Part shown: piece by piece, positions 582 through 42,229 of the stretch | How the letters are laid out: each line of letters starts with the position of its first letter | How positions within the stretch are numbered: position 1 is the stretch's first letter | Source: Terriglobia bacterium | GTDB taxonomy: Bacteria > Acidobacteriota > Terriglobia > 20CM-2-55-15 | DNA: 64,000 nucleotides | Assembly (NCBI GenBank): GCA_965198225.1 | Contig: CBDAOY010000006.1 | Span: 320,001 to 384,000, forward strand | Direction: 5' to 3' | Position numbers and translations under genes: made by a program | Notes under the pieces: model-generated | Database searches by the model: none | Told to the model about the DNA's origin: nothing | The model's input: only the letters and a program-made list of their open reading frames with translations

Positions 582-1754
582 ATGACAACGAGATCCGGTC
601 GGCAATTCCTGCAGATTCCTGGCCCTAGCAATGTGCCCGACCGCGTGTTGCGGGCCATTAATCGGCCCACAATCGATCATCGCGGTCCGGAGTTCCGAGA
701 GCTGACCGAACGGCTCCTGTCCGGGCTGAAGCAGGTTTTTAACTGCGCGGGTCCGGTGATTATTTTTCCTTCGTCGGGATCGGGCTGCTGGGAAGCCGCC
801 CTGGTGAATACGCTCTCCCCCGGCGACACCCTGTTGATGGTGGAGACGGGACAGTTCGCAGTGCTCTGGCGCGACATCGCCATGAAACTCGGGCTCGATG
901 TGGAGTTCATTCCCGGAGATTGGCGGCATGGGGTGGACCCCAAGACCATCGAGGCGAGGCTATCGGCGGATAGCGATAGAGTGATCAAAGCCGTTGCCGT
1001 CGTCCACAACGAGACGTCCACCGGAGTCACCAGTAATATCGCCCAGGTCCGAAAAGCCATGGATTCGGCAGCTCATCCTGCTCTGCTTCTGGTGGACGTG
1101 ATCTCTTCGCTCGGTTCGACCGACTACCAACAGGACGCGTGGGGCGTGGACGTAACCGTTGGAGGGTCCCAGAAAGGTCTCATGCTGCCTCCGGGTCTCG
1201 GCTTCAACGCGGTAAGTGACAAGGCGCTTGACGCTGCCAACGACGCAACCCTGTCGAGGTCATACTGGGACTGGAGCGCGGTCGTCGAGGCGAACAAGAC
1301 CGGTTTCTTTCCTTATACGCCGGCCACCAATCTGCTCTTCGGTCTCGATGAAGCACTGACCATGCTTTTCGAGGAGGGGCTCGAAAACGTGTTCTCCCGC
1401 CACGCGAGGCTCGCCGAAGCTACGCGTAAAGCCGTTGCTGCCTGGGGCCTGGAGAATCTCAGCCTGGACCCGAACGAGCACTCCAACAGCTTGACGGCTG
1501 TGCTCATGCCGGAAGGTCACGACGCTGATGCGTTCCGCAAGGTGATCCTGGAGCGTTTCGATATGACATTGGGCACGGGCCTGGGCAAAGTGAAGGGCAG
1601 GGTCTTTCGCATCGGTCACCTGGGCTGGCTCAACGAGCTGATGCTAGCGGGTACGCTCTGCGGTGTGGAGATGGGCCTCAAGCTCGCGGGAGTACCGTTC
1701 AAACCTGGCGGCGCGCAAACGGCGCTTGACTGGTTGGCCGAACAAAGCGAGTAG
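582..1754 (+). CDS. Serine/alanine-glyoxylate aminotransferase (class V PLP)
   Basis: LQIPGPS, DHRGPEF, VHNETSTGV, GSQKGLMLPPG, FRIGHLG motifs; start may be 570 or 582. Confidence 0.92.
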   Translation: MTTRSGRQFLQIPGPSNVPDRVLRAINRPTIDHRGPEFRELTERLLSGLKQVFNCAGPVIIFPSSGSGCWEAALVNTLSPGDTLLMVETGQFAVLWRDIAMKLGLDVEFIPGDWRHGVDPKTIEARLSADSDRVIKAVAVVHNETSTGVTSNIAQVRKAMDSAAHPALLLVDVISSLGSTDYQQDAWGVDVTVGGSQKGLMLPPGLGFNAVSDKALDAANDATLSRSYWDWSAVVEANKTGFFPYTPATNLLFGLDEALTMLFEEGLENVFSRHARLAEATRKAVAAWGLENLSLDPNEHSNSLTAVLMPEGHDADAFRKVILERFDMTLGTGLGKVKGRVFRIGHLGWLNELMLAGTLCGVEMGLKLAGVPFKPGGAQTALDWLAEQSE

Positions 1755-1790
1755 GGGGCATCATCGTGGACCCTTCCACGGTGGTGCCAA

Positions 1791-23769: not shown

Positions 23770-23787
23770 CGGCCCTGAGTCCTCAGT

Positions 23788-25943: not shown

Positions 25944-26406
25944 TATCCATGGATCTGCCACCCTCTGCTCCCTGCCCGCTACGGAATCGCCGTTCGCGGC
26001 TCGGTTTTCGAACGTCAGGTCACGGCGGACTGGATAACCCAATGTCCTTTGAGCGCCTGGGCGGGCGCACCCGCTGTGGGTCCCGACATCGAAGCAGTAG
26101 GGCTTCCCGGGGTAAGACACGCCCCCTCCTCGTATCCCGTCCGGCTTCAGCTCCCTTCGGTAACTCCGATCGAATATCGGGGCTCGCTCTCTCAAGCCTG
26201 CTCGCCCCCCTCCGGGCACCCATCTAGCCGGTTCGCTGTTCGCTACGTACACGAGTTCTGCCTCATGCTTCCTCCGGACATCCCATCTCTGAGACTGCCC
26301 TTGCCTTGTTGGCGTTCGCCTTCCGTCCGATCACGGTGGCTTTCCTGCCTTCGGTTGGCGTGCCATGCCCGGCGCACTAGAGTGTGAGCCTCACAAGGAG
26401 GCTCAC

Positions 26407-27297
26407 ATGACGAAGCTGCGACAACGGATGCTGGAGGAACTCCAGCGCCGGAACTACTCACCCGCTACGATTCGGCTGTATCTTCACGCGGTCGAAGACT
26501 TCGCCCGCTACTTCGGGAAGTCCCCCGACAAGCTCGAACAGGAACAGATGCGGCAGTACCAGCTGCATCTGCTTCAGGAGCGCAAGCTCGCTGTCGACAC
26601 CATCATCGGACGGATCGCCGCACTCCGGTTCTTCTACGTGAAGGTGCTTCGCCGTCCCTATCACCAGGTCGATCTGGTCTATCCGAAACAGCCGTCCCGG
26701 TTGCCCACGATTCTGAGCGAAGAGGAAGTGGCGCAACTGCTGGCCTCCGCCAACAGTGCCTATCACTTCGTCATCCTGATGACCTTGTATTCGACGGGAC
26801 TGCGGCGGGCCGAGCTGTGTCGTCTGAAGGTCGAGGACGTCGATAGCGAACGCATGGTGATCCATGTGAGGCAGGGTAAAGGCAATCGCGACCGCGACGT
26901 GCCGCTGTCACCGAAACTGCTGGAAGTCCTGCGCGACTACTGGCGTTGGCGGAAACCCGGCGAGTACCTCTTCCCCAGTTTGCTCCGGACCCGGCCCGGA
27001 CAGCCCATCGATGTGAAGACGGTTTGGTACGCCGTCCAACAAGCCGCCCAACGTGCCGGCATCAAAAAGAAAGTATCCCCACATACGCTGCGCCACAGCT
27101 GGGCCACCCACCTGCTGGAGAGGGGAACCGACCTGCGAACCATCCAGCTCCTGTTGGGTCATGTCGATCTGGAAGCGACGACCCTCTATCTCCATTTGTC
27201 TCAGGCGCACATGCAGCGCGTGGTGAACCCGATCGATTCTCTTCCGGTTCCCGATCTGGGACCGTCTCCCCGTCTGAGAAAGAAGAAAGGCGAATGA
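26407..27297 (+). CDS. Tyrosine recombinase/integrase with N-terminal SAM-like domain
   Basis: TGLRRAE (R), GKG (K), HTLRHSWATH, LLGH, TTLY; AAGGAGG RBS. Confidence 0.95.
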   Translation: MTKLRQRMLEELQRRNYSPATIRLYLHAVEDFARYFGKSPDKLEQEQMRQYQLHLLQERKLAVDTIIGRIAALRFFYVKVLRRPYHQVDLVYPKQPSRLPTILSEEEVAQLLASANSAYHFVILMTLYSTGLRRAELCRLKVEDVDSERMVIHVRQGKGNRDRDVPLSPKLLEVLRDYWRWRKPGEYLFPSLLRTRPGQPIDVKTVWYAVQQAAQRAGIKKKVSPHTLRHSWATHLLERGTDLRTIQLLLGHVDLEATTLYLHLSQAHMQRVVNPIDSLPVPDLGPSPRLRKKKGE

Positions 27298-28463
27298 GCC
27301 GGCCCGCCGTCGAGGTGGCCGACATCGTCCGCGCCCGGGTTCGAGGTTTCCTCCAGCGTCACCGCCTCGGCATCCAGAAGCTCAAGGTCCTGCGCGCCAT
27401 CCTGAACTGTCGTACTGCGGCTCTGGGTGGCCACATCGACCGGTGTGCCGATTGTGGCCGGGAGTCCGGAATCTCGTTCAACTCCTGCCGCAACCGCCAC
27501 TGCCCGAAGTGTCAGACCCAGGCCCGACGACGGTGGCTCGAAGCACGAGAAGCCGAACTGCTGCCCACCCCCTACTTCCACGTCGTGTTCACCGTCCCGC
27601 ACCAGTTCCATCCGTTCTTCTTCCACAACCCTGCCCTACTCTACAGCCTGCTGTTTCGCAGCGTGGCCGACACGATGATCGAGGTGGCGGCCAATCCGAA
27701 ACGACTCGGCGCCCGGATCGGCTTCTTCGGCATCCTGCATACCTGGAGTCAGAACCTGGAGTTCCATCCCCACATCCACTGCGTGGTACCGGCCGGCGGA
27801 CTGGCTCCGGATCAGTCCCGTTGGATTCCGGGTTCTGGGCGCTTCTTCCTCCCCAAGCAGGTGCTCGCCCGAGTCTTCCGTGGCAAGTTCATCGACGGGC
27901 TCGGGCGAGCGATCGCCGACGGTTCGCTCGAACTGTCCGGCTCGATTCGACCCTTCGGCGAACCGCAACACTTTCGGCGGTTCCGCCGCCAGATCCATTC
28001 CCGCAACTGGGTCGTCTATATCAAACGACCCTTTGGTGGCCCCGAACAGGTGCTCCGCTACCTGGGCCGCTACACCCATCGGGTCGCCATCTCCAACCAT
28101 CGATTGATCTCGTTTGACGGTAACCGGGTCCGGTTCCGTTGGCGGGATTACCGCAATGGCAACAAGAGTCGCATCATGACACTCGCGGCCGACGAGTTCA
28201 TCCGACGGTTCTTATTGCACGTTCTGCCGAAGGGCTTCGTCCGCATCCGACACTTCGGATTCATGGCCAACTACCGCCGGTCGGCCGCCTTCGCTCTCTG
28301 TCGCCAACTCCTCGATGCCATGCCGAGGGTCGAATCTGACGAAACCACCACCTCGAACTCTTCCTGGTCGTGTCCGCACTGTCAGGGACCGATGACTCTC
28401 ATCCAACGCTTCACCGCTCTGCAACTCGTAGCGAGGCTCGCCTTCCAATGCGATACGTCCTAA
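27294..28463 (+). CDS. IS91 family (Y2/HUH) transposase
   Basis: CRTAALGGH, SCRNRHCPKCQ, YFHVVFTVP, HPHIH, YLGRYTHRVAISN, LHVLPKGFVRIRHFG; ATGA overlap with integrase stop. Confidence 0.95.
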   Translation: MSRPAVEVADIVRARVRGFLQRHRLGIQKLKVLRAILNCRTAALGGHIDRCADCGRESGISFNSCRNRHCPKCQTQARRRWLEAREAELLPTPYFHVVFTVPHQFHPFFFHNPALLYSLLFRSVADTMIEVAANPKRLGARIGFFGILHTWSQNLEFHPHIHCVVPAGGLAPDQSRWIPGSGRFFLPKQVLARVFRGKFIDGLGRAIADGSLELSGSIRPFGEPQHFRRFRRQIHSRNWVVYIKRPFGGPEQVLRYLGRYTHRVAISNHRLISFDGNRVRFRWRDYRNGNKSRIMTLAADEFIRRFLLHVLPKGFVRIRHFGFMANYRRSAAFALCRQLLDAMPRVESDETTTSNSSWSCPHCQGPMTLIQRFTALQLVARLAFQCDTS

Positions 28464-29065
28464 TCCTCCTTCACAAACCGACGACCGACGTGCGGTTCAG
28501 CCACGTCCTCGCCGGAGTGTGCCTCCGCTGCAAAATCCCCTCAGATCCCGTCCTTTCAACCCACCGATTCCCCGACCCAACTGCTTTCCGATTCACACCA
28601 TCGACGCGGTCATCGACCGCCGGTCCCCCTCCTCGCCCCAACGCCACTCCAGATCCGGCCCGCTTCCGGCTACTTTCTCCATAGCCCACCGCGTCCGCCG
28701 CATTCGGCCAGCGCCCTCCTTCAAGTCTTGTTATCGAAACTGCCGCGGTGGGAACTTCTCGCTCATCCTGTGGCCGCGCTCGCCGCGGCACTTCCGATGA
28801 ACGCTAACGACTTCCCAGGCATCTGGATGATCGACTTCGAGGAGGACCGATTTGATGGACATAGATGGTCGGGTCGGTCAGCATAGCACCGGACTCGCCT
28901 AAGTCTCGTCAAAGAAGTCGTCGAGGCCCAGGTGCTGCCAGTGACAAGAACTCGCAATGAGTGAACATCAGGCAAAGATTGCCGCGATACTCAGCCTTTG
29001 TAGGCTGGAGGGTTTCCTATAAACCTGGAAGTTTAACCATGCGACTTCAGGAGGACCAGAATCAC

Positions 29066-30392
29066 ATGACGAAATCTCGTCGAAGCCTGATCATGGTCGT
29101 TGCTCTCTCTGTTGTCCCTACACCCGTTGGGGCGCAGGAACCCGTCTATTGGGATGTGATCGACCGAATTCGCAGTGAGGGATTCCAGAACTCGCAGGTT
29201 ATGGACAACGCCGGCTACCTGGCCGATGTGATTGGTCCACGTCTCACAGGATCACCCAACATGCGCCAGGCTCAGGACTGGGCGATGGACCGCATGACGG
29301 AGGTCGGGCTGTCCAAGGTGGAGAAGGAGCCGTGGGGCGATGAGACCGTCGGGTGGGAGGTGCAGCGCGTTTCCGTTCATATGAACGCGCCCGACTACCA
29401 GATGGTGATCGCGTACCCGCTTGCCCTGACGCCCGGGACGCAGGGTCCGGTCACCGCAAATGCCGTGACTGCACCGATCCGGACCCCTGAAGATCTGGAT
29501 CGATATCGCGGTCGTCTCGATGGCGCGATCGTGCTGGCCACACCTCCGATACCGACGAGTCCCCGCTTCGTCCAGGACGCGTTCCGGCATACTGAGGAAT
29601 CGTTGCGCGTGTTCAAGACAGAGGGAACCGACCTTCTCATCAACCGCCACGGACGGGGTCAGCCCGACCAATCGACCCTCCGGCGAGAAGGAATCTCCGC
29701 GGCCGAGGTAGAGGAATTCTACAAGTCCGAGGGGGTAGCGGTGGTTCTGACCGCGAGTATCGGTAGCGACGGAACGGTGTTCGCGACCGGACATCCCACG
29801 ACACGTAACGACAGGACCCGCGCAGGGATCTAGAATGCCCTTCCCACCCTCGCCGTTGCCACCGAACACTACAACCGCATCTACAGGATTCTCGAACGGG
29901 GGATCGAGGTGACGATGGACGTTGAAGTCCGGGTCGCGTTCGACGAATCGGATCCGAGGGGGTACAACGTGATCGGCGAGATTCCGGGGAGTGATCTAGC
30001 AGACGAGGTGGTGATGATCGGGGCGCACCTGGACTCCTGGCACGCCGGGACCGGTGCAACCGACAACGCGAGTGGCGTTTCGGTCGTGCTCGAAGCGATG
30101 CGCATACTCCGGGCCATCGACTCCCGTCCGCGGCGCACGATTCGTGTGGCCCTGTGGAGTCAGGAGGAGACGGGTCACAGGGGCTCCCTGGGCTATATCA
30201 AGAATCACTTCGGGAGTCCGCAAGAAGGCACCACGCCCGACCATGAGCGCTTTTCCGTGTACTTCAACATGGACAATGGCACCGGCCAGTTCCGCGGCGT
30301 GCACATCCAAGGAAATACCCAAGCCACGCCCATACTCGATGCCTGGATGAGACCGTTCAATGAGTTTCAAATGGAAACGATCTCCCAGTTCA
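29066..30392 (+). pseudogene. M28 family peptidase with in-frame TAG (29831-29833) and 3' truncation
   Basis: GPRLTGS, GAHLDSWH, GATDNASG, QEETG, YFNMDNG; ORFs 28961 and 29909 share a frame; second metal His region missing. Confidence 0.85.
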
Positions 30393-30558
30393 GGCGGACT
30401 CCCCCGGCCTCTCGGGCAAGAGCAACAGTGTCGTCCGTTGAAAAGTCGTCGATGAGGACTACCGGACAGTTCTCCTGAAGGAGGGCGGAGCGCACCGCCC
30501 GCTGGATCGTGGCCGAAGCATCCCTCGCCGCAATCAGTATGGTCGCGGTTGTATCCAT
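30390..30558 (-). pseudogene. GT2 glycosyltransferase N-terminal fragment
   Basis: TILIAARDASATIQRAVRSAL..IDDFSTDDT, cut after ~55 aa where it meets the M28 gene. Confidence 0.75.
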
Positions 30559-30615: not shown

Positions 30616-31932
30616 CTACGAGCCGTCCGAAGTCCGTGCGAGTCCCCGCTCTGGCAGGTCGTGCTCTCCGAGACCCCACCGACGGCCATTCATTAGGTAA
30701 GGTCGTCGTGCCAGGCCAAACGAGAGGAGGCGGTATACCCTACCGGCCAGACGACGGTAAGAAAAGAGCTGACGGTCGAGCGCGCGGTAGGCCGCCCAGA
30801 GATCCCACAACAGGCGAATCAAGCGGCCACGCAGTTTGCGGAGTTGTTCGACTTCCGCAGCGGGCATTCCCTTCAAGAGGCGCCGCACATGGCCCACCTT
30901 CGCGATCAGCGGCCGCGGACGACGCTCCGACAGCAACCACACCCGGTACAGATACTCAGCGTAAGACGGGTAATCAGACACAGCCACCCCGCTTAGGCCG
31001 CGGCGCGGTTCGTTGAATGTCAGGCGCACCCCGAATCGCACGATGTCTCCCAGTTTCGGGAAATACAGATCCGATCGCTGGAACTCGTAGTTCAAGTCCT
31101 CGAGGAGCGTATCTTCGAGCTGGCCTACCAACGGCGTCAGTGGCCCTTTCCCGGTTCTCGCGGGAGTGAGGTCCCCGTGCCGGACCTTGAACAGGCAGTG
31201 GTCGGGCGGCAGGATCTGCTGTTCCAGGCCGCTGGCGACGAGCGCGTAGAGGGCAAGGCCGTCGCTGTCCATCGAGACGACACTGCCGGTCTCAGGAAAG
31301 CCGCGCACTGTCTGCCAGGATGCGTGTGAAGCCAGCAGGAAGTCGCCGCTGGCATTCGTATGAAGGGACAGACCCGCGGGAACTGTGGGAGCCTCGAGGG
31401 CGCGATACTCGTGCGCAGCATCATTGGAACAGCGATCGAGGAAGGCGAAACGGTCATCGGTCGGCGTGTCCAGGACCTCGGCGGGAACATCCACGCGGTT
31501 GACGCGGTACACCCGATCGCTACGCAGTTCACGCCGCGCAAGGAACTCCATCAGCGGCTCCGAGTAGAAAACGTCGCTGGCCCGAACTACGATGAACTGC
31601 CCACACGCCCTACGGATGCCCACGTTCGCCGCGACGGTACCCGCGGACCCTGGAAACTGGTTCCAGAGGCGCAAGCGGCGATGATGGCGAGGGGGAACCA
31701 CTATGAAGCGAACTTTGACACGCTGATTCTGTTCCAGTCGCAAAACGCCACGCAGCAGCGGTTGATCCTGCGGAGGGTTCCACTCGACGACGATGATCTC
31801 TGCGTCGAGCGCATGATCCGTCAATTGCGCGATGAGAAAGTTCAGCGACCGCTCCAGCTTGAAGACGAGGTCGCCGCCATAGTCATCGTTCCGGCTGTAC
31901 AGGACGAAGGAGATGTAAGGTTTCGCTGGCAC
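30616..31932 (-). CDS. GT-A fold glycosyltransferase-like protein
   Basis: ISFVLYSRNDDYGG, EIIVVEWNPP, NVGIRRA, ASD, NASGDFLL. Confidence 0.75.
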   Translation of the reverse strand: MPAKPYISFVLYSRNDDYGGDLVFKLERSLNFLIAQLTDHALDAEIIVVEWNPPQDQPLLRGVLRLEQNQRVKVRFIVVPPRHHRRLRLWNQFPGSAGTVAANVGIRRACGQFIVVRASDVFYSEPLMEFLARRELRSDRVYRVNRVDVPAEVLDTPTDDRFAFLDRCSNDAAHEYRALEAPTVPAGLSLHTNASGDFLLASHASWQTVRGFPETGSVVSMDSDGLALYALVASGLEQQILPPDHCLFKVRHGDLTPARTGKGPLTPLVGQLEDTLLEDLNYEFQRSDLYFPKLGDIVRFGVRLTFNEPRRGLSGVAVSDYPSYAEYLYRVWLLSERRPRPLIAKVGHVRRLLKGMPAAEVEQLRKLRGRLIRLLWDLWAAYRALDRQLFSYRRLAGRVYRLLSFGLARRPYLMNGRRWGLGEHDLPERGLARTSDGS

Positions 31933-32142
31933 TTATGCGTCCCTGTGGACCATCCACCCCTGTGTTCGAAAGCGCTTCGGAAGAATAGCAGGCATCTGAT
32001 GATTGAATCTCGACTACGGGTGCACTACACACACTGTCCGGTGGCAACAAGCGGCTCGTATTGCGGAGTCATATTAATGGATTCCTGAGATTGTATGCGT
32101 GGAATTGCATTGCGGCCGCTTTGTGGCATTAGAATTGTTTCC

Positions 32143-33645
32143 ATGGCTACGGAGCGACTCCGACGCGTGCTCTCTCGATCCGGGCAACCGACAGTCGAGG
32201 TGGACGGCGTTGCGTATCACAGTGTGCACGACCCGTTGCGTGAGGTCCGGCGGTTCTACTCGGCTTTGAAGCTCGAGGACGCCGACGTGATCCTGCATTT
32301 CGGCTGGGGGCTCGGTTATTGCGGCGAAACACTCCGGGAGCGGACCAAACCCGGCGCTCGCATCGTCGTTTTCGAGCCAGACGAAGAACTCTTCGAGTTG
32401 TCGCGTGCCGAATCCGTCAACAGCGATGTCTTCGAAGAAGACCGCTTCGAGTTTGTCGTGGGTGCGAACGTATCTCATTTTTTCGACGACTGGGAAACGG
32501 TCAACTTCCGGGAAACCGACCAGATCCTGTGGGTGGAGTGGCCGGCAGCTCTTCGTGAATACGCCCAGGTGGCAGAGTCTCTACAAGCCCGGTTCAAGAG
32601 CCACCTGCGTGATCGGGCAGCCAACCTCCTGACGCACTTTCAGAATGGAGAGGTCTACTTCGAACATGTCATCGGCAACTTCGAGTATCAAGGCGACGCC
32701 GATGCGGGCCGTCTCTTCGGGCGTTTCCGCAACATCCCCCTGGTTCTCGTTTCCGCCGGGCCGTCACTGGATCGCAATATTGGCCAGCTGCGGGACCGGC
32801 AGGACCGGTGTTTCATCCTGTCGGTCGACACGGCACTGCGGCCATTGCTGGCCGCCGGAATCACGCCTCACGCCGTCATCACCGAGGATCCGAGCGAGCT
32901 GAACGCACAACATGTCGTCGGCGCGATACCGGAATCGGTATATCTCATCGCAGAGCAGGCAGTCCACCGGTCGGCGCTTGACGCGGCCGCACGACGTTTT
33001 GTTTTCGGCCTCGGACTGTTTCCCGATTCACTCTTTTCGAAGTTCGGCTTCGGCAAGAGCAGCCTCGATGCCTGGGGCTCGGTGGCCACAACCGCCCTGG
33101 ACCTCGCGTGCCGGATGGGCGCCAATCCGATAGTCTTTGCAGGCCAGGACTTCGCCTACTCCTGGTATCGCGACTACGCGAGCAACACCATCTATCACGG
33201 CAACCCCTTCTACCCCGAACGGTCCGGAACGGAGCAGGCAGACGACATCTTCGGCAACACCGCCCACACGACGGAAAACATGATCGCCTACCGCGACTAC
33301 TTTGTACGTCGGATGAAGCAGGAGTCCGGAGTTCGCTTCATCAATGCCACCGAGGGCGGCATCCTCACCGAGGGTGCGGAGGTGCTGCCCCTCTGGGTTG
33401 CGTTTGAACAGATCCTTTTCGATCCCGTGGACATCGCCGGCGTCCTCGCCGAAAGTCATCAGCCTTCGAAGGCTTCGGCCGACGCTCTCGAACACCTGCA
33501 TCAGGTTCTGAAGTACCGCCGCACGGACTGTGCCTGCCTCGACGGTTTTCTGGAGCTCGCCGCGAAGGAACACCTGTTGAGCAGGGATGAGTCCGAGGTC
33601 GAGAAGACAATCCTGCGCGGAATCGACACCATTTCAGCCAGATGA
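32143..33645 (+). CDS. Maf (motility-associated factor, DUF115/MptE-like) family protein
   Basis: HSVHDP, GWGLGY, VFEPD, VSAGPSLDRN, GSVA, MGANPIVFAGQDFAY, INATEGG. Confidence 0.88.
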   Translation: MATERLRRVLSRSGQPTVEVDGVAYHSVHDPLREVRRFYSALKLEDADVILHFGWGLGYCGETLRERTKPGARIVVFEPDEELFELSRAESVNSDVFEEDRFEFVVGANVSHFFDDWETVNFRETDQILWVEWPAALREYAQVAESLQARFKSHLRDRAANLLTHFQNGEVYFEHVIGNFEYQGDADAGRLFGRFRNIPLVLVSAGPSLDRNIGQLRDRQDRCFILSVDTALRPLLAAGITPHAVITEDPSELNAQHVVGAIPESVYLIAEQAVHRSALDAAARRFVFGLGLFPDSLFSKFGFGKSSLDAWGSVATTALDLACRMGANPIVFAGQDFAYSWYRDYASNTIYHGNPFYPERSGTEQADDIFGNTAHTTENMIAYRDYFVRRMKQESGVRFINATEGGILTEGAEVLPLWVAFEQILFDPVDIAGVLAESHQPSKASADALEHLHQVLKYRRTDCACLDGFLELAAKEHLLSRDESEVEKTILRGIDTISAR

Positions 33646-33680
33646 CGAGCTCGCTGGGCCCGCCGGGCCGGCAACCCTAG

Positions 33681-34524
33681 CTAAGGCGCGCCGAAGGGGA
33701 TCGAGCGAGCTTGAAGCTGGCTGGTGAAATCCCGCAACGCGTCGTCATTGGTACTCGCTCCCATGCCGAACAGCCGTGCTCGCATCAACTGAACGAAACC
33801 TCTCAGTCCTGTGGAATACTCGTTCGCGGCGAGCGCGCCTGCCCTGTTGTTGAGGTAATAATCTAAAAACGTGTTGTCCTCGGCCCGCTCGTAAACGTAA
33901 TGATCGCCGATCACGCCCCTCAGGGTGAACTTGTGGCGCTTCCTGAATGGACCGATCGACATCCAATTCCTGGAGTCGATATCCCCAGCGACAGCGACGA
34001 CTTCGTCCATCGTGCCGCCATCGCCTTCGAGTGCGTCTAGGAGTTCGAAAAAACCGAGCTGACACCCGGTCTCGTGATTGTGAAACGTGGTGTTGAAGGT
34101 TGGATCGAGAACATGATGCGTCCATGCGGCGCCGTCTGAAATCGGCACGACGACGGTAACATGGGTCAGCCCGTCCCGTGTGTCGCCGAAATTGATCGTA
34201 AACGATCCATACCCGAACGTCTTCAGCAGCTGATCAAAGAACAGGGACATGCCCGCGCAGTAGACGGCGCCTAAAAAGGACCCACCAAACGGGGTTTCTG
34301 GGCAGGAACTGATCGTAGTACGCTTCTGCCGCCGACGCAGTTTGAACGAAGCTGGTCGTCGCCTGGGAAAGCTCATCCACCAGGGCGTAGTTTCCGGCGT
34401 TCGCCGCCCAGTTCAGGATCAGGCACGCAGCGCGCAGACGGTCGGAAGCCAGCGCGTCGGCGAGGCCGTCGATCTCCTCGAGGAGTTGTCGTCGGAGCCT
34501 GACGGAGGACGGTTCATCGAACAT
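33681..34524 (-). pseudogene. Transglutaminase-like (Cys-His-Asp) protein frameshifted by a 22-bp insertion
   Basis: YCAG/THV/LDPTF; paralog of the C-terminal half of 40376-42229; removing 34273-34294 restores FLPRKGAVYC. Confidence 0.75.
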
Positions 34525-34545
34525 GATAAGACTGGGTCGGACGGC

Positions 34546-34820
34546 TAGCAGCCCGTGGCAGAACTCTGCAGGGTCGCGCGCAGGGGTCTTCGGGTTGCAG
34601 GCGCGAAGAGAGGAGCGGAGCGATGATCATTCATCGTGACCGACGAGCGACAAAGCCTGCGGCCCGAAGACCCCTGCACCCTTCGGGTTACGGCGAAACG
34701 GGGCCGTCTTCGTTGTCGCCGACTCCTCCCAATGAATGAGCATTGTTTCGTCCTCGCCTCCTAGAATCCGGCCCCGTTTGGCCGTAACGCGGCCCTGCAG
34801 AGTTCTGCCACGGGCTGCTA
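34546..34820. mobile_element. MITE-like element, TIR TAGCAGCCCGTGGCAGAACTCTGCAGGG
   Basis: 33-bp TIR with one mismatch, 275 bp, TA at both ends, overlaps GT2 stop. Confidence 0.88.
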
Positions 34821-35897
34821 AACGGCGGCTCGTTCAGATTGCAGGTCCATCTTGGCGAGCCTGGTCGCCGCTGCGACCTGGCAGGGTCTGTTCTGGGGGC
34901 GATCCAGCCCCGCCAGAGCCTCCAGCATGGATCGAGCGTGAGCCGGATTCTTCGTGTGGAAGGCTCCTCGGATCCGGCCGGTGTCGAGCCTGCGCACGCC
35001 TTGATGCCAGCCGCAATCCCAGCTCTCCCGATCGGCTTCGATGTCCCTGAAGAGCTGGAGCGCACGGGCCCGGTCGTCGTCGCTGAGCCGCTCGAAGGCC
35101 TGGGCGAAGACACTCATCAGACCACGCCCGCCCAGGGCGGCTACGATTTCCGGTGTCACCTCGACACTCTGCTCCTCGAAACAACGGCGGATGAACATCC
35201 TCTCCAACGCCGATCCCATTGAGCTGCCGTTGAAGTCGGCATTTCCAGCATGACGACGCGAGCGGTGCAGTAGATGGTCGACGCATGCAATCGGGCCGCG
35301 CTGGGCGATCTTGAGCCAATGGTAGTACTCGGCGGCTCGCCACAACTCGGGAAACTCGGGGTCGGTTTCGAGGAACGGCCCGACCTCTTCGAGCACGTCA
35401 CGACGGATCAGGACCGTGTTGCCGTTGATGAAGTTCCCGTCCAGCAGCGCGGTGAAGGCATCGGTCTCGAATTCGTTCGGAGGATGGAAGTCGCCGATCT
35501 GGCGGCCGTTGGCGTCGATCGCGACGTAAGCGGTATGAACAAGTCCGACCGCCGGATTCTCATCCAGAAAACGAACCTGCGCTTCGAGCTTGTCCGGTTC
35601 GAAGATGTCGTCTGAACTCAGCCATGCGAAGTAATCCCCGTGCATCTGGCGTATGCCTATGTTGATCGGCGTAGGGGTACCGGAAGGGCCCTGCGAGTTG
35701 ATGACGAGCGATATCCTCCGCTCGGGATGCCGCTGGATGAAGCCCTCGACAATCTTCCGCGATTCATCCGTCGAGTTGTCGTCCACGACGATCAACTCCC
35801 AGTCCGTGAACGTCTGACCGATGACGCTATCCAGGGTTTCCGCGATGAACCGACCGTAGTTGTAGTTCGGAACGACAATGCTGACTCTGGGCGTCAT
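34818..35897 (-). CDS. GT2 glycosyltransferase
   Basis: VSIVVPNYNY, VVDDNSTD, WLSSDD, KLEAQV. Confidence 0.92.
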   Translation of the reverse strand: MTPRVSIVVPNYNYGRFIAETLDSVIGQTFTDWELIVVDDNSTDESRKIVEGFIQRHPERRISLVINSQGPSGTPTPINIGIRQMHGDYFAWLSSDDIFEPDKLEAQVRFLDENPAVGLVHTAYVAIDANGRQIGDFHPPNEFETDAFTALLDGNFINGNTVLIRRDVLEEVGPFLETDPEFPELWRAAEYYHWLKIAQRGPIACVDHLLHRSRRHAGNADFNGSSMGSALERMFIRRCFEEQSVEVTPEIVAALGGRGLMSVFAQAFERLSDDDRARALQLFRDIEADRESWDCGWHQGVRRLDTGRIRGAFHTKNPAHARSMLEALAGLDRPQNRPCQVAAATRLAKMDLQSERAAV

Positions 35898-35965
35898 AGT
35901 GATCTGTTTTCTACGGCCTCCGCCCGATTACAAGAGGTTTACCGACACGGCCTCCGCCATGAAAA

Positions 35966-36059
35966 TGCAGATCGGTGTCCAAAGGATAGGTTCTAAATAT
36001 CAGCCACTTACGGTGTCAGGCAGGCGCTTCCGAATCTAAAATTTGACGTGAAATGTCAG
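35966..36059 (-). promoter_or_regulatory. Putative sigma54 promoter with IHF site and upstream activator palindrome
   Basis: TGG-ACACCGATCT-GCA (GG-N10-GC); TATCAGCCACTTA 35998-36010; TGAC-N7-GTCA 36044-36058; layout repeated at 42288-42382. Confidence 0.68.
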
Positions 36060-36135
36060 GATTCCGTCGGTAAGATCTAGTGGCTAGTAACAGCGTTTGT
36101 CCCGTGGCGTCTTTCAGAACAATCAGAGGAACAGG

Positions 36136-37191
36136 ATGAGTATCCCCTTGCAGCATCTAGAGTGTGACATTCGCTCGTGGCTTCAGGAACATGGCGGGAT
36201 CGCTTCCGACTATACGGTTCAGCGAATCAACCAGAGCTACCCACGAATCCAACAGATACTCACCGAGAGCGGGGGTGTTTCCTTCACAGCCGCCCTCGAC
36301 ATAGGGTGCGGTGCAGGTTTCGACGCATTCGCGTTGGGCGTTCACTTCGACCAGGTTCTTGCCATCGACTCCAGCGAGGCCGCCATCGAGGAGGCGCGCA
36401 GCATCGCCCGCGAAGCGGGTGTCTCCAACGTCCATTTCGAATGCGTTGATGCGCTGGGCTACGTGCCTTCAACGCTCTTCAGCTTCGTTTTTTGCAATAT
36501 CATGTCGCACAACGTGGACTCACGGCGGCTGCTCGCGACGGGCATCGCCCAATCCCTCGATCTGAGCGGATGGCTGAACTACGCCGAAGAACAGGAAGGG
36601 TATGCTCCCTTGGAGATCCACCGGGCAATCCAACGGAAGGATCTCTCCGCGGTGACATACCGCCTGTGGCAGATGCTTCGAGGCTTCTGCAGCATGAAGG
36701 GGTTCCGGTTTTTTGCTTCGGGTTCGATGGCGCCACTCCTGGAGGCCCTGGGGCTGAGGACCGTATCCTGCCAGTCCGAAGAGTGGAACGGCATCCCATT
36801 CGTCGAGAGGATTTCCCTCGTCCGCGAAGGAAGGCCGCTCGGACCCGAGCCTGAGGGAACGGATCCCGATTACCTCGACCTTCGGGACGAGTTCCAGCAG
36901 ATGAGGGGAAGGTTCCGGGCGTTGATTTCCGGCCGACCGGAGGCGGGGTTTTCCGCTCACCAGCGTGAGGAAATAGAGGAGGAAGCGGGGGCTTCGGCTA
37001 ATCGCTACGGACCTTTCCTGACGCTGCTGTCGATGGCAGACCTGGTTCTTCCGTCCCTGGATGAGGACGATCGCGGCCGACTACAGGCACAGCCGGAACC
37101 GAATTGGAGCTTGTTGCAGGATCTCGACGGGCGTTTCATCGGACAGATGAGACAGCGGGCCGGTCTGGAAGAGGGGCCGATTGACGACTGA
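36136..37191 (+). CDS. Class I SAM-dependent methyltransferase
   Basis: LDIGCGAGFD motif I, AID motif II. Confidence 0.85.
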   Translation: MSIPLQHLECDIRSWLQEHGGIASDYTVQRINQSYPRIQQILTESGGVSFTAALDIGCGAGFDAFALGVHFDQVLAIDSSEAAIEEARSIAREAGVSNVHFECVDALGYVPSTLFSFVFCNIMSHNVDSRRLLATGIAQSLDLSGWLNYAEEQEGYAPLEIHRAIQRKDLSAVTYRLWQMLRGFCSMKGFRFFASGSMAPLLEALGLRTVSCQSEEWNGIPFVERISLVREGRPLGPEPEGTDPDYLDLRDEFQQMRGRFRALISGRPEAGFSAHQREEIEEEAGASANRYGPFLTLLSMADLVLPSLDEDDRGRLQAQPEPNWSLLQDLDGRFIGQMRQRAGLEEGPIDD

Positions 37192-38287
37192 CGAGTTTCA
37201 TCAATCGTTTTCGAACCGACCACGGTTAACGACGAGTCAAATGGATCTTCCGCTGCGGCATCCAGAGTGCGACCTCCGCTCCTGGCTTCAGGAACACGGC
37301 GGGATCGCTTCCGACTATACTGCCCGGCGAATCACCGAGAGCTACCCCCGCATCCGAGGGATACTCGGGGACACACAGGGCCTTTCCTACAACGCCGCTT
37401 TCGACATTGGGTGCGGATCGGGCTTCGACTCCTTCGCGATGGGCCTTCACTTCGACCAGGTTGTTGCCGTTGACACAGACAAGAAAGCGATCGAGGAGGC
37501 CGTCAGGATCAGCGGCGAAGCCGGAATCACCAACGTCCATTTTGATTGCGCCAACGCCGAACAGTACGAGACTTCCAGGCTCTTCAACTTCGCCTTCTGT
37601 AACCTGATGTCTCACAACGTCGGTTCCCGATGCCTGCTTGGCGTGAGAATGGCAATGGCCCTGCAGGAGGGTGGATGGCTGAACTACGCCGAGGAGCAGG
37701 AAGGCTATGCTCCTCTGGAGATCCACCGGGCCACCGAGCGGCGGGATGTTGCGGGGCTATCACAACGCCTGCGGCAATTGCTTCGGGGTTTCACGGGAGC
37801 GCCGGGTTTCAGATTCTTTGCCTCGGAGAGCATTCGGCCGCTACTGGCGGCCCTGGGGCTGAGGTCCGTGTCCGGTCACATCAACCGCTGGAACGGGTTA
37901 CCGTTCGGAGAGAGGATGTTGTTCGTTAAAGACGGAAACCCTTCTGAAACGGAACCCGACGGCACCGACCCGGATTACCTGGCGGTGCCGAGCGAATTTC
38001 GAGAGATCGGGGACAGGTTCAGAGCGTGGATAGAGGTCCGCCCGCCTGAAGGGTTTGCTCGTCAGCAGCGCGAGGAGATAGAGAAGGAAGTCGACGGTAC
38101 CGCCAATCGGTACGGACCTTTCCTCACGCTTCTGTCGATGGCGGACCTGGTATTGCCATCCTTGAGTCCCCTGGAAACACCGGAAGCCCATGAGCCGGAC
38201 TGGGATGCAGTTCTGGAACTCGACAGGCGTTTCATCGCCCAGGTGCGAAAGAGGGCAGGTTTGGAAGATGGGCCGATTGACGACTGA
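37181..38287 (+). CDS. Class I SAM-dependent methyltransferase, tandem paralog of 36136-37191
   Basis: FDIGCGSGFD; shares WLQEHGGIASDY, WLNYAEEQEGYAPLEIHRA, AGLExGPIDD; start 37181 or 37241. Confidence 0.85.
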   Translation: MTTDEFHQSFSNRPRLTTSQMDLPLRHPECDLRSWLQEHGGIASDYTARRITESYPRIRGILGDTQGLSYNAAFDIGCGSGFDSFAMGLHFDQVVAVDTDKKAIEEAVRISGEAGITNVHFDCANAEQYETSRLFNFAFCNLMSHNVGSRCLLGVRMAMALQEGGWLNYAEEQEGYAPLEIHRATERRDVAGLSQRLRQLLRGFTGAPGFRFFASESIRPLLAALGLRSVSGHINRWNGLPFGERMLFVKDGNPSETEPDGTDPDYLAVPSEFREIGDRFRAWIEVRPPEGFARQQREEIEKEVDGTANRYGPFLTLLSMADLVLPSLSPLETPEAHEPDWDAVLELDRRFIAQVRKRAGLEDGPIDD

Positions 38288-39275
38288 TTTCGAAGAGTAC
38301 GGGTACAGCCGGGGTCCGGTTCCGGTCCGGGGACGTTACTGGCTGCTCACCGTCGATTTCGAGGCGTTCACCAATCCGGACAACATCGCGTCTTGGATGG
38401 CGGCCATGCGTCACTGGGCGGCCCAGGCGAAGAACTACGGCTTACGGTTCTCCTTCTTCATGTCGGTCGAGGATGTCGTCATCTTGAAAGTGAATTCCCC
38501 TACTGAATACGGCGATTTCCTGGAGTGCGTCGACTTGTTATATCAGTCAGGAACGCGCTTTCATCCTCACAATCACGGCGTTTTCGATCCGGAAAGCGGA
38601 GCCGGTTTCGCCGATACCGACAGTGAGCGGCCCGAAGGATATACCAAACGCATCAGTATGTTTCATCGCGCCCACTACCAGCACGGAGTGGACTTTGGCT
38701 CCTGGATGGGTACCGTGAAAGCAGGCTACGAGAGTTTTCTCGCCGATGCGGGTGTTCCGCCGCCCCACATGCTTGCCTTTCGCGCGGGCGGATGGGACTA
38801 CGGCTCCACTTCAGAGGACCTCCGGATATACCTGGACGCTCTGTCCGAGGCAGGATACAAAGTCGACAGCAGCGCCTGCTCGGGCGCGTTTGGTACGCCC
38901 TCGTGGCGGATGGGCGCCGACTACCAATCAAACGTCTTCCTGCTGGACTCTAACTTGATCGAAGTTGCGCCGAATTCCGCACTGGATTGCGGGCAGTTGC
39001 CGCCCGAAGCGCCGTCGCCGTTTGAGACCAATCAATCGGGGCCTGGAGTGTATGTACACGTCTTACACTTCGATCATCTCTTTCACGAACTCGACGCCGG
39101 CTCATACCGGTATTTCGCCGTGACCGACCCTGAAGCGATAAAACGGAGAATAGACCAGTTTTTCGAAAAAATGGGGATCTGGCGGTCTTCGCCGCTTCTC
39201 CAGAGCGCCACCTTTGACGACATCGAGTTTGTGATGCCGGAATCGGTTTCTTCCGAGGAGAGTCACAGTGTCTGA
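38277..39275 (+). CDS. Polysaccharide deacetylase-like (CE4/NodB-type) protein
   Basis: LLTVDFE, HPHNH, AFRAGGW, VDSS, LHFDH; TTG start overlapping the upstream stop. Confidence 0.72.
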   Translation: MTTDFEEYGYSRGPVPVRGRYWLLTVDFEAFTNPDNIASWMAAMRHWAAQAKNYGLRFSFFMSVEDVVILKVNSPTEYGDFLECVDLLYQSGTRFHPHNHGVFDPESGAGFADTDSERPEGYTKRISMFHRAHYQHGVDFGSWMGTVKAGYESFLADAGVPPPHMLAFRAGGWDYGSTSEDLRIYLDALSEAGYKVDSSACSGAFGTPSWRMGADYQSNVFLLDSNLIEVAPNSALDCGQLPPEAPSPFETNQSGPGVYVHVLHFDHLFHELDAGSYRYFAVTDPEAIKRRIDQFFEKMGIWRSSPLLQSATFDDIEFVMPESVSSEESHSV

Positions 39276-40311
39276 AAGCACCACCGAGCCGCTCGTTCTC
39301 AATGACATGTACGAACAGCCGCGTAAGAGCCTGATGGTCAATCTGGTCATGGGCCTTTTCCTCAGGTTGAAGGAAGACCGCTACTCCTCTCCTCACAGCA
39401 CTCGACCCGATTTCGAAAAGGATGGGGAAGCCGAGCTAGCTGAAGCCGAACCACCTGAAGATGCAAGCTCGGGTGACGTGCTCGATCCCCGCACCCAGTA
39501 CGAGTACGACACCGCCTACAACTCGTTCTTCTATTGGCTCCAGGACTACGTCACCATGGACTTCCTCGACCACAAGGACGTGCTCGACGTCGGTTGCGGA
39601 TGGGGCGGGAAGATGATCAATTACGCAGCCAACACCCAGCTCAACACGATCTATGGATTCGACGTCCCGCCGTACAAGCCGGAGGTCTCCGAGGCATTTG
39701 CCCGGTCCAAGGGCTTGGACAACTGCGTCTTCACGGCGGCTTACGCCGAGGACATCCCCTACGACGACAACCGGTTCGACGTGGCGATCATCGACGACGT
39801 CCTGGAGCACGTGCAAGACCCCGAAAAGACGGTCTCGGAGGCTTATCGCGTCCTGAAGCCCGGAGGCACGCTAATCATCAAGTCGCCCTCGTTCAAGATG
39901 ATGGACGCCCATCATCTTGACAATGCAATCACCTGGCCCGGCATCCACTATCTCCTGTCGATGAAGACGTGGGCGGCCGGCCTGAACTATCTGCTTCTGG
40001 ACGAAAGATACCGGGATGTTCTGAACTTCTCCCCCTTCTACAAGACCGTTTCGACGCGGTATCACAAATGTGTCACCGCCAACCTGAACGGGCTGGACTA
40101 CTCCGACTTCGTGCAAATAATCGGGCGGCATGATTTCGAGATTGAAACGTTGAAGATGACGAAGCGGAATATATCGAGGAGCAGGGTCGTAAAGTATCAT
40201 CTCTATGATTTCTTCTACCGTATCCCCCTGGCGAAAGAGTTCCTTTCACAGTTTGTCCTGTTCATCGGCAAGAAGCCCGCAAAGCCCGATTCCCAGAGCA
40301 ACGCTTCCTGA
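39268..40311 (+). CDS. Class I SAM-dependent methyltransferase (type 11-like)
   Basis: VLDVGCGWGG, AEDIPY, DVLEHV, RVLKPGG. Confidence 0.9.
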   Translation: MSESTTEPLVLNDMYEQPRKSLMVNLVMGLFLRLKEDRYSSPHSTRPDFEKDGEAELAEAEPPEDASSGDVLDPRTQYEYDTAYNSFFYWLQDYVTMDFLDHKDVLDVGCGWGGKMINYAANTQLNTIYGFDVPPYKPEVSEAFARSKGLDNCVFTAAYAEDIPYDDNRFDVAIIDDVLEHVQDPEKTVSEAYRVLKPGGTLIIKSPSFKMMDAHHLDNAITWPGIHYLLSMKTWAAGLNYLLLDERYRDVLNFSPFYKTVSTRYHKCVTANLNGLDYSDFVQIIGRHDFEIETLKMTKRNISRSRVVKYHLYDFFYRIPLAKEFLSQFVLFIGKKPAKPDSQSNAS

Positions 40312-40375
40312 CGCGTATGGAACACGCCGGGACTACCGCTTGTCGTGAATGATGGAGTGGGAGTCGAGACGGTCT

Positions 40376-42229
40376 TCAGCGGTTTCCGAGAGGTATGCCT
40401 CGGGCTTCCAGCTGTCGGGTAAAATCCTGCGTCGCCGTCGCGTTCCCGCAGGGCCCGATGCTGAACATCCGAGCGCGCATCAACTGCGCGAGTCCTTTCA
40501 GACCGCCGGCATATCCGTTAGCGGCGAGTTCCCGTGTGTTTCTGTCGAGGAAGTCGACGAATCTGCCGTCACTCCTCCCGTAGACGTAGCGATCGCCGAC
40601 AACGTCCCTGAGGAAAAAGAAGGACTCTTTGAGGGGACCGATCGATATCCAATCCCTGGAGTCCATGCTTTCGGAGTGTGCGACAACCGAATCCATGCTG
40701 TCGGTGTCGAGCGCATCGATCAGTTCGAACATGCCCAACTGGCATCCGGTGACGCGGTCATGAAACGTCGTGTTGAAGGTCGGATCGAAGATATGGTGCT
40801 CCCATGCCGTGCCATCGGAAACCGGCACGATGACGGCCACGTGGGTCAGCCAGTCCCTCAGGTCACCGAAGTTGATCGTAAAGGCGTCGTACCCGAACAT
40901 CTTCAGCAGCCGATCGTAGAACAACGCCATGCCGGAACAATAGAGGGCCCCCTTGTTCGGCAGGAATTGATCGTAATAGATCTCCGCGACCGACGCCTTT
41001 AGAACAGAGTCGGTTGTGACCTGCGCAAGATCACTGCTCTGGGCATAGTTTCCAGCGTTGGAGGCCCAGTTCAAAAGCATCCGGGCCGCTAGCATCCGAT
41101 CCGTGACCAGTGCATCTCCAAGGCCGTCGATTTCAATCAGAAGCTGCTGCCTCAACGTAGCATCAGTAGTAGCAGGTACTTCTTCGAGGGCCAGACGTTC
41201 CCGGCTCAGCTCGTTCACACCCTGGCAATGGACCGGCCCAGAGCCACCCGGTGTCCTGTGCACGACGCCGGATGCACCCTCCTCGCACCGATCGCCGAAC
41301 CGCTCGATGGATGACGGAGCCCTCCACCCCACTGAATGCCTGGCGAACCACCCGTCATCGACGCCACTGGCCTCGTAGAGTTGGAGCGCGCGAGCCTGGT
41401 CCTCGTCTGGGAGATGGGCGAACGCCTCGATGAAAACACTCATCACACCTCGCCGGCCGAGCGCCGCTACTATCCCCGGTGTCAACTCGACACGCTGTTG
41501 CTCGAAGCAGCCAAGTGCGAAGCTGCTTTCGAGGCACGATTCGATGTAGCGACTGTTGTCGTGCGCGTTTCCAGCGTGACGTCGCGCCCGGAGCAACGGA
41601 CGATCGATACACGCGATAGGGTGGCGCAGGGCGATGAGGAGCCAGTGATGATACTCGGAGGCACGTCCCAAACCCGGGAACCTCACGTCGGTTTCGACAA
41701 ACGGGCCGACGTCGGCGAGCACCTCGCTGCGGATGAGGACCGTGTTGCCGTTGATGAAGTTTCCGTCCAGCAGCGTCGTGAACGCGTCGGTCTCGAATTC
41801 GCCGGGAGGGTGGCAGTCGCCGATCTGACAGCCGTCCGAATCGATCGTGATGTAGGCGCTATGAACCAGCCCGACCGCCGGATTCTCATCCAGGAAGCGG
41901 ACCTGCGCGTCGAGCTTGTCCGGCTCGATCACGTTGTCCGAACTGAGCCACGCGAGGTAGTGTCCGCGCGCCTCGCGCATTCCGAGGTTGATCGGCGCCG
42001 GCGCGCCGGAAGGGCCCTGCGGGTTGACGACGAGTGAGATATTCCGATCCGGATGGCGCTGTATATAGGACCCGACGATTTCTCGCGAGTCGTCCGTAGA
42101 GTTGTCGTCCACGACGATCAACTCCCAATCCGTGAGGGTCTGCCGGATGACGCTGTCGAGGGCCTCCCCTATGAAACGACCGTAGTTGTAGTTGGGGACG
42201 ATGACGCTGACTTTGGGCACCGTGGTCAT
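40376..42229 (-). CDS. GT2 glycosyltransferase fused to a transglutaminase-like domain
   Basis: N-half is a close paralog of 34818-35897; C-half has YCSG/THVAV/FDPTF. Confidence 0.82.
   Translation of the reverse strand: MTTVPKVSVIVPNYNYGRFIGEALDSVIRQTLTDWELIVVDDNSTDDSREIVGSYIQRHPDRNISLVVNPQGPSGAPAPINLGMREARGHYLAWLSSDNVIEPDKLDAQVRFLDENPAVGLVHSAYITIDSDGCQIGDCHPPGEFETDAFTTLLDGNFINGNTVLIRSEVLADVGPFVETDVRFPGLGRASEYHHWLLIALRHPIACIDRPLLRARRHAGNAHDNSRYIESCLESSFALGCFEQQRVELTPGIVAALGRRGVMSVFIEAFAHLPDEDQARALQLYEASGVDDGWFARHSVGWRAPSSIERFGDRCEEGASGVVHRTPGGSGPVHCQGVNELSRERLALEEVPATTDATLRQQLLIEIDGLGDALVTDRMLAARMLLNWASNAGNYAQSSDLAQVTTDSVLKASVAEIYYDQFLPNKGALYCSGMALFYDRLLKMFGYDAFTINFGDLRDWLTHVAVIVPVSDGTAWEHHIFDPTFNTTFHDRVTGCQLGMFELIDALDTDSMDSVVAHSESMDSRDWISIGPLKESFFFLRDVVGDRYVYGRSDGRFVDFLDRNTRELAANGYAGGLKGLAQLMRARMFSIGPCGNATATQDFTRQLEARGIPLGNR

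Follow-up and report, generated by a model that had tools for sequence, protein, structure and literature searches.

In a 64,000-nucleotide (nt) stretch of DNA from a Terriglobia bacterium (contig CBDAOY010000006.1, positions 320,001 to 384,000; hereafter the window), one gene joins a glycosyltransferase of family 2 (GT2) to a C-terminal domain, named TGL here, whose modelled core is that of transglutaminases and papain-like enzymes. This fusion is real and is confined to a narrow lineage of close relatives. TGL itself is a new family within the known transglutaminase/papain-like (clan CA) superfamily and, as predicted from its model, is most likely an active thiol enzyme. The gene lies in an island—30.6 to 42.2 kb of the window—that we read tentatively, at slightly less than an even chance, as a flagellin-glycosylation-type island for glycan tailoring, in which a glycan-directed acyl-enzyme step would be coupled to the GT2.

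A glycosyltransferase fused to a transglutaminase-fold domain

An earlier note, made from the sequence alone, had described the gene at 40376–42229 as a GT2 followed by a domain with YCSG, THVAV and FDPTF motifs. This description stands: PF00535 (GT2) covers residues 8–132 of the 617-amino-acid (aa) product (E 1.6e-28, above the Pfam cut-off), and the C-terminal ~270–280 aa, TGL, contain all three motifs. The protein begins straight with the GT2 domain and, by eye, has no hydrophobic leader. A frameshift artefact as the origin of the fusion was ruled out, the frame being open here and in eight other clusters. In a length-matched search, GT2–TGL fusions accounted for nine clusters among 11 matches of 339–1080 aa; the fused clusters measure 609–727 aa, and their TGL identity to the window protein is 58%–81% in the eight others. 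The stand-alone GT2 paralogues have the motif SSDD; in the window fusion, P0003 and P0153 it is SSDN, and six more distant fused proteins have NPGE at the aligned position; we take the acidic metal-binding (DXD-type) motif of GT2 enzymes to map to this position. In the longer fusions P0154, P0156 and P0158, the linker that connects the two domains includes an FG-GAP-like repeat motif. This fits the many FG-GAP–TGL proteins of the family and hints at descent of the fusion from an FG-GAP–TGL ancestor. A complex prediction for the GT2 and TGL halves scored 0.00 against a mark of 0.32, which has no bearing either way.

The AlphaFold model of TGL, built with 53 homologues aligned, has a predicted local distance difference test score (pLDDT) of 94.2 and a predicted template modelling score (pTM) of 0.91. 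The predicted triad was placed on it by secondary structure: Cys94 of the domain (Cys431 of the fused protein) stands at the N terminus of helix 94–107, His126 (His463) lies in strand 124–134, and Asp145 (Asp482) ends strand 139–145. In a VIA-align comparison with 48,161 chains, the best match was TG2 (Z 9.0, 180 aa aligned), below which came TG3, factor XIII, protein 4.2, PNGase (7.6), the amide synthase GdmF (7.2), LapG (7.1), TglA, and NATs; further values were 6.7 for NAT1, 5.7 for PeiP, and 5.2 for the CPR-C4 protease. The NAT-type matches, GdmF and NAT1, thus score below the transglutaminases. Nearly all of the 35 chains at Z of at least 5 belong to the transglutaminase/papain-like superfamily. 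Foldseek returned LapG (E 7.5e-4, the best bacterial match), a putative cysteine protease, a transglutaminase, TglA, CPR-C4, and PeiP, with a best E of 5e-4 and a probability of 1.00 for LapG, 3isr, and TglA, and in the ESM features Transglut_core clusters supplied 26 of the 30 matches. The transglutaminase- or papain-like fold that the earlier note had proposed is thereby borne out, as is the conservation of Cys, His, and Asp. Among 1.84 billion representatives searched, 325 TGL homologues reached E≤1e-3, and the stricter limit of E≤1e-10 left 196. The triad was counted in P0002 and the 149 other proteins of P0002–P0151 (148 of the 150 listed matches); among these it reads C-H-D in 141 of 150, C-H-E in three, and S-Y-D in one, with five fragments. 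In the TGL alignment A1, C94, H126, and D145 are nearly invariant.

By sequence, the domain is recognised by none of the family resources consulted. Against Pfam at E≤10, TGL matched neither Transglut_core (PF01841), BTLCP (the LapG/HvyA family, presumably PF06035), NAT, nor any other peptidase family; the sole hit was a sub-threshold one to Gln_deamidase_2 (E 0.061) over the His–Asp strands, suggestive but not evidence. NCBIfam gave no match for the domain, and PDB chain sequences gave none at E≤10, with the single sequence and the profile alike. Because the Pfam, NCBIfam and PDB sequence searches recognise none of it, TGL is ranked as a new family of a known superfamily. A PF01841 search of the whole genome found three other loci, the TGL genes not among them, and an hhalign comparison of the TGL profile with a single genuine Transglut_core protein from this genome aligned the Cys helix, but at a probability of no more than 2.8%.

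TGL thus shares with TG2, TG3, factor XIII, PNGase, LapG, and HvyA the core fold, the Cys at a helix N terminus, and His and Asp on adjacent strands. Unlike these enzymes, it has no family hidden Markov model match, carries an additional N-terminal five-helix part and a C-terminal subdomain beyond the transglutaminase core, and is fused to a GT2, which is new. Its triad spacing is 32 residues from Cys to His and 19 from His to Asp, compared with 34 and 15 in HvyA (PMC4241560) and 34 and 17 in CtaJ (PMC7898593).

The two-gene copy and its insertions

A second GT2–TGL pair, which had been described as a separate GT2 followed by the same domain, lies in the window. The arrangement stands, whereas in this assembly the TGL region 33681–34524 is not one open reading frame (ORF) and a miniature inverted-repeat transposable element (MITE)-like insertion comes between it and the GT2. 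Over 282 aa, the stand-alone GT2 shares 70% identity with the fused GT2 (E 9e-145); its orthologues in two sister genomes are 69%–71% identical and fall in its length class. Its TGL partner, copy 1, is divided between ORF 33681–34376, which is 60% identical to residues 427–615 of the fused protein over 194 aa (E 3e-77), and ORF 34234–34524, which is 56% identical to residues 359–443 over 85 aa (E 1e-26). Judged from these alignments, the paralogy of both the GT2 and the TGL copies is far beyond chance.

Logan contigs of four public runs were compared over 33600–36000; such contigs give no allele frequencies. In all three of the DNA runs (X1, X2, and X6, from three studies), the covering contig lacks the 22 nt inserted at 34273, and contigs of the same runs join 34537 (34528 in X6) to 34811 without the MITE; the X1 contigs otherwise match, with 0 further differences in 938 bases and 3 in 1190. 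Removal of the 22 nt in silico yields one 273-codon frame through the Cys motif. Because the contigs of X1, X2, and X6 are free of both lesions, the separate module is a real arrangement of a GT2 gene and a TGL gene with a spacer of ~20 nt, and it is the assembled haplotype that carries both lesions. The 22-nt insertion reflects either polymorphism in the population or a mistake in the assembly. That TGL copy 1 is a dead pseudogene in general was rejected, since its undamaged form is found in contigs of three runs. One 180-nt contig with one mismatch falls on copy 1 in X11, an RNA library labelled sponge metagenome; this is a weak hint of expression and too little for a claim of transcription.

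The end of the MITE supplies the stop codon of the stand-alone GT2 in this assembly. The genome has 18 copies of the element that reach ≥90% identity over ≥240 nt, and its summed contig depth in three metagenome runs is 1000–3000, against ~2–20 for the flanks. A TA target duplication is apparently present. IS630-family transposases target TA, and transposases of this family (DDE_3) flank sister loci. In one sister genome, a second GT2–TGL copy is broken by a ~320-bp insertion with its own inverted ends (L011:8402–8722), an element distinct from the MITE of the window; second copies seem to have been hit by mobile elements repeatedly. GT2 and TGL also occur in a sister genome as overlapping ORFs in different frames.

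The island, the flagellin genes, and distant TGL loci

The remaining genes of the island (Table 1) are those of a putative nonulosonic-acid transferase of the Maf type, methyltransferases, a candidate deacetylase, and a conserved protein. The Maf-like protein of the earlier note is confirmed by PF01973 (E 4.8e-34, with a score of 118 bits where the cut-off is 34.6) and is the only MptE-like match in the whole genome. It reached 43 bits against a cut-off of 670 for NCBIfam PseD and is hence no equivalog of it. Orthologues of 71%–72% identity adjoin GT2/TGL in two sister genomes (L008 and L011), and L011 repeats the arrangement of methyltransferase, CE4-fold protein, GT2–TGL, and Maf. The three methyltransferases previously noted were all recovered by Pfam.

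The claim of a deacetylase resembling carbohydrate esterase family 4 (CE4) draws support from the modelled fold but not from Pfam, in which the protein has no match at E≤10, NodB (PF01522) included. Its model (pLDDT 89) finds CE4 deacetylases at the top of Foldseek—3rxz (E 1.6e-5), 3qbu, and 4nyu—and the CE4-type matches include HP0310, a Vibrio chitin deacetylase, and PdaA (E 1.6e-5 to 1e-3, probability ~1); class II aldolase barrels match at similar E-values. ESM features point to polysaccharide deacetylase and DUF2334 clusters (0.91–0.93). The protein is one of a widespread family whose members are unnamed (180 matches). Its aligned residues D30, H101, H103, R172, D177, and H267 are invariant, and D30, H101, and H103 could be metal ligands. 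A 335-aa homologue in the database matches it at 100% identity, and the start of the longer ORF at 38190 is probably not the real one. In this genus, the CE4-fold gene is always near TGL.

Further glycosyltransferases had also been proposed; this claim is unconfirmed, as the sole candidate, the conserved protein at 30616–31932, finds no counterpart in Pfam, NCBIfam, or PDB sequences. Its homologues share the size of the longest contig with GT2–TGL homologues in several assemblies: 36,277 bp (P0286, P0005, and P0168), 62,280 bp (P0291 and P0003), and 1,576,508 bp (P0290 and P0154). A pathway like that of Nod factors (NodC/NodB/NodS/NodA) was considered for the island and rejected, the likeness being generic alone (NodC E 9e-4, at family level; NodS E 0.006).

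Table 1. Coordinates of the features discussed, counted from the first letter of the window
Feature	Position	Strand	Remarks
GT2–TGL fusion gene	40376..42229	-	single uninterrupted frame, 617 aa; PF00535 match
Layout of the fused protein			GT2 ~aa 1–300, linker ~aa 300–350, TGL ~aa 350–617
TGL domain as modelled (P0002, 280 aa)	40376..41218	-	AlphaFold model
Predicted nucleophile Cys431	codon 40937–40939	-	
Predicted triad His463	codon 40841–40843	-	
Predicted triad Asp482	codon 40784–40786	-	
Stand-alone GT2 paralogue	34818..35897	-	359 aa; PF00535 E 2.6e-31
Stand-alone TGL gene (copy 1)	33681..34524	-	two overlapping ORFs in different frames in this assembly
22-nt insertion shifting the frame of TGL copy 1	~34273..34294	.	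run contigs lack it
275-bp MITE-like insertion between GT2 and TGL copy 1	34546..34820	.	33-nt terminal inverted repeats
Maf-type (MptE-like) putative nonulosonic-acid transferase	32095..33645	+	516 aa; PF01973
S-adenosylmethionine (SAM) methyltransferase A1	36097..37191	+	Methyltransf_25/31/11 (Pfam)
SAM methyltransferase A2	37181..38287	+	Pfam; 59% identical to A1
CE4-fold protein (P0161)	38268..39275	+	335 aa; model fold match
SAM methyltransferase B	39268..40311	+	Methyltransf_31/11, E 1e-22
Conserved protein, family unassigned	30616..31932	-	438 aa
Group II intron reverse transcriptase/maturase genes	22153–23769 and 23896–25323		
Intron RNA domain	26117–26295		RF02001
Tyrosine integrase overlapping IS91-type transposase	26365–28463		

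To the right of the island are ClpS and a peptide transporter of the ATP-binding cassette (ABC) type; to the left is a pile-up of mobile elements (22153–28463). An M28/M20-like peptidase appears to be split between ORFs 28961–29833 and 29909–30478, which may be another lesion at the edge of the island.

The genome holds six flagellin-family matches, and flagellins and NeuB are found on contigs 7, 9, and 5, the island being on contig 6. On contig 9, flagellins, FliS, FliD, and FlgN are followed by a GT2 protein with tetratricopeptide repeats (TPR), a GT1, NeuB, an ATP-grasp enzyme, and a CMP-sugar synthetase. This flagellar locus looks like a second glycosylation module, and its TPR-containing glycosyltransferase is one that we take to resemble Caulobacter FlmG. 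The ATP-grasp enzyme of the module (G000:C9:555000-565000; L034 and L035) is PylC-like. A second NeuB-family gene (G000:C5:295349-296071; L018) has an in-frame TAG.

TGL is sparsely distributed. It is present in two of the three other genomes of the genus and in none of 56 other relatives; three of 401 sampled genomes of the phylum possess it, this one included, as does one of 401 sampled cyanobacteria, the centre genome itself. For architectures, Pfam was run on 79 homologues chosen from the 150 listed matches, mostly the longer ones. A GT2 domain was present in two (P0003 and P0005, the closest relatives) and FG-GAP/VCBS repeats in 16; others carry dockerin, Ig-like, RTX, or Calx-beta modules, and none of the 79 matched a transglutaminase family of Pfam. 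Many homologues of 420–450 aa start, by eye, with hydrophobic or lipoprotein-like leaders.

The neighbourhood census covered eight loci, and a search with a 14-row alignment gave four genome loci and one metagenome locus. In five of the eight, polysaccharide genes and an AsnB-like amidotransferase lie within ~10 kb of TGL. The orthologous loci L008 and L009 have epimerases, RmlC, GMD, and an AsnB-like gene nearby; a Caldora cyanobacterium (L010) has a Wzt ABC transporter, three methyltransferases, and a GT2; and a metagenome contig (L022) has Wzy_C and a GT1, its TGL gene adjoining a subtilase–FG-GAP gene. In an acidobacterium (G337 contig 17; L031/L032), two leader-bearing TGL paralogues lie within a large exopolysaccharide locus, and the contig holds heparinase II/III, GT1, GT4, DegT, a GT1–methyltransferase fusion, and phosphoenolpyruvate mutase; one of the two TGL genes lies downstream of an AsnB-like gene, ~300 nt away. 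No such set of polysaccharide and AsnB-like genes is present at the remaining three loci (the window, L011, and G337 contig 18). Because AsnB-like genes are common in polysaccharide loci, their co-occurrence with TGL is a lead, not a test.

Proposed function and competing readings

The closest known system is the polar flagellin glycosylation island (FGI) of Aeromonas, in which Maf-1, a soluble, leaderless, and cytoplasmic GT2 (Fgi-1), methyltransferases, and deacetylases occur together (PMC7874193); Maf enzymes O-glycosylate flagellins with nonulosonic acids (PMC11339370). The island of the window likewise joins a Maf-type transferase, soluble GT2 proteins, methyltransferases, and a deacetylase-like protein, with nonulosonic-acid genes in the genome. 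Unlike the FGI as described in excerpts of PMC7874193, it is not beside flagellin or pse-type genes, lacks nonulosonic-acid biosynthesis genes of its own, and carries a transglutaminase-fold domain, which is not among the FGI genes named there. A full-text literature search found nothing joining ‘transglutaminase-like’ with ‘flagellin glycosylation’. The surface-glycan setting that the earlier note had assumed is retained, both here and at distant homologues, and is refined to the flagellin-island type. The refinement is made because the island holds the sole Maf of the genome, while flagellins, NeuB, and a CMP-sugar synthetase are encoded elsewhere; on such circumstantial grounds, the Maf protein is a putative flagellin nonulosonic-acid transferase.

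In the proposed scheme, the Maf-type transferase would place a nonulosonic acid on protein, the two soluble GT2 paralogues would lengthen the glycan, and the three methyltransferases and the CE4-fold deacetylase would decorate it. In TGL, His463 and Asp482 would activate Cys431, on which an acyl-enzyme thioester would form, a route argued from the conservation of the triad. Either water or an amine would then resolve this intermediate; in the second case a new amide would arise on a sugar amine, for instance one that the CE4-like enzyme had freed. The pathway suggested in the earlier note, in which an amine freed by the deacetylase would be acylated or cross-linked by TGL, is plausible. Flagellin is the target with a likelihood just under even, and TGL is somewhat likelier to act on glycan than on protein. 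The choice between amide formation and hydrolysis is about even: the top structural scores belong to transglutaminases and the nearby CE4-fold enzyme could expose a sugar amine, which favours the former, whereas the LapG-, PNGase-, and Pei-type matches and the extracytoplasmic setting of most homologues favour the latter. For amide formation there is cytoplasmic precedent in CtaJ and AdmF, transglutaminase homologues with a Cys-His-Asp triad that make amide bonds from thioesters (PMC7898593). CtaJ, AdmF, and GdmF are, like TGL, Cys-His-Asp proteins; they are cytoplasmic and transfer acyl groups from thioesters to amines, and GdmF reached Z 7.2 against the TGL model. Unlike the island, their clusters encode a supply of carrier-protein or coenzyme A (CoA) thioesters.

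Several observations weigh against this scheme. The island is on a different contig from the flagellin and nonulosonic-acid genes, and neither an acyl carrier nor a CoA ligase nor any other obvious source of an acyl donor is encoded in it. The leaders of most TGL homologues, and in others the FG-GAP, dockerin, Ig, or RTX modules ahead of the domain, suggest an extracytoplasmic place; outside the cell, acylation dependent on CoA or a carrier would be impossible, and proteolysis, amidase, or transamidase activity would be likelier. The structural matches cover the core only (TM 0.25–0.44), at which level transferase and hydrolase are not separable. Because NPGE replaces SSDD, the GT2 domains of the distant fused clade may not be standard enzymes. 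One of the two TGL copies is damaged here and the second copy of a sister genome is also broken, and hence the GT2–TGL module may be dispensable.

An alternative, on balance unlikely, is that TGL acts by hydrolysis, as would a cysteine peptidase or amidase like LapG/HvyA, PNGase, or the pseudomurein isopeptidases, and trims protein or removes an amide-linked group, for instance to process or regulate the glycosylation or export machinery rather than to build an amide. The LapG, PNGase, PeiP, and CPR-C4 matches given above speak for this, as do the apparent secretion or membrane anchoring of most homologues and the subtilase–FG-GAP neighbour of the metagenomic gene. There is also the precedent of HvyA, a periplasmic BTLCP with a C/H/D triad from a Caulobacter capsule export locus, which blocks capsulation and requires its triad to do so (PMC4241560). 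However, TGL matched no BTLCP or peptidase family of Pfam even at the permissive threshold, and the best structural scores are those of true transamidases. Moreover, TGL of the window protein sits behind a cytoplasmic GT2, and by eye that protein shows no leader of the Sec kind that marks BTLCPs; many distant TGL homologues do have leaders.

Less probable still is that the island tailors a polysaccharide (exopolysaccharide, lipopolysaccharide, or capsule) rather than flagellin, TGL being part of polysaccharide biosynthesis in general. The polysaccharide and AsnB-like genes at five of the eight TGL loci and the distance of the island from the flagellar locus speak for this; but a Pfam scan and neighbour annotation revealed no flippase, polymerase, initiating phosphoglycosyl transferase, or sugar-nucleotide genes in the island, which instead holds the only Maf of a genome with nonulosonic-acid genes beside its flagellins. 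A further and rather improbable proposal is that TGL is a ‘glycan transglutaminase’, for which a carboxamide made by an AsnB-like amidotransferase from a sugar carboxylate would serve as acyl donor. The carboxamide would be used in the manner of glutamine, allowing ATP-independent amides to de-N-acetylated amino sugars or lysines; outside the cell such links would cross-link or anchor polysaccharides, and here they would tailor the flagellar glycan while still on the GT2.

Finally, TGL might have no catalytic role and instead regulate the GT2 by binding to it. A parallel exists in yeast, where Cyk3 has a transglutaminase-like domain that acts on, and activates, the catalytic domain of Chs2, a GT2 chitin synthase (PMC4758748). 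Coupling to a GT2, here by fusion or gene adjacency, is shared with that pair, and fusion is compatible with direct contact; yet Cyk3, a separate eukaryotic regulator, lacks the catalytic Cys according to excerpts of that paper, whereas TGL retains the full triad in nearly all of the proteins counted and most TGL homologues have no GT2 partner, so that this role is very improbable.

Documented cases of transglutaminase-type chemistry have until now involved proteins, peptidoglycan-like polymers, and a few natural products. Should glycans be the substrate of TGL, a thiol acyl-enzyme step of the transglutaminase type would be added to bacterial glycan tailoring, and the GT2–TGL fusion would offer a soluble, single-polypeptide system in which to study it. 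The family comprises 325 representative clusters with no Pfam or NCBIfam model and no solved sequence relative. As it recurs in polysaccharide loci of unrelated phyla, a function assigned to TGL would provide annotation for the whole unclassified family. The source bacterium is sponge-associated and flagellated, and variable flagellar and surface glycans are candidate features for host recognition of sponge symbionts.

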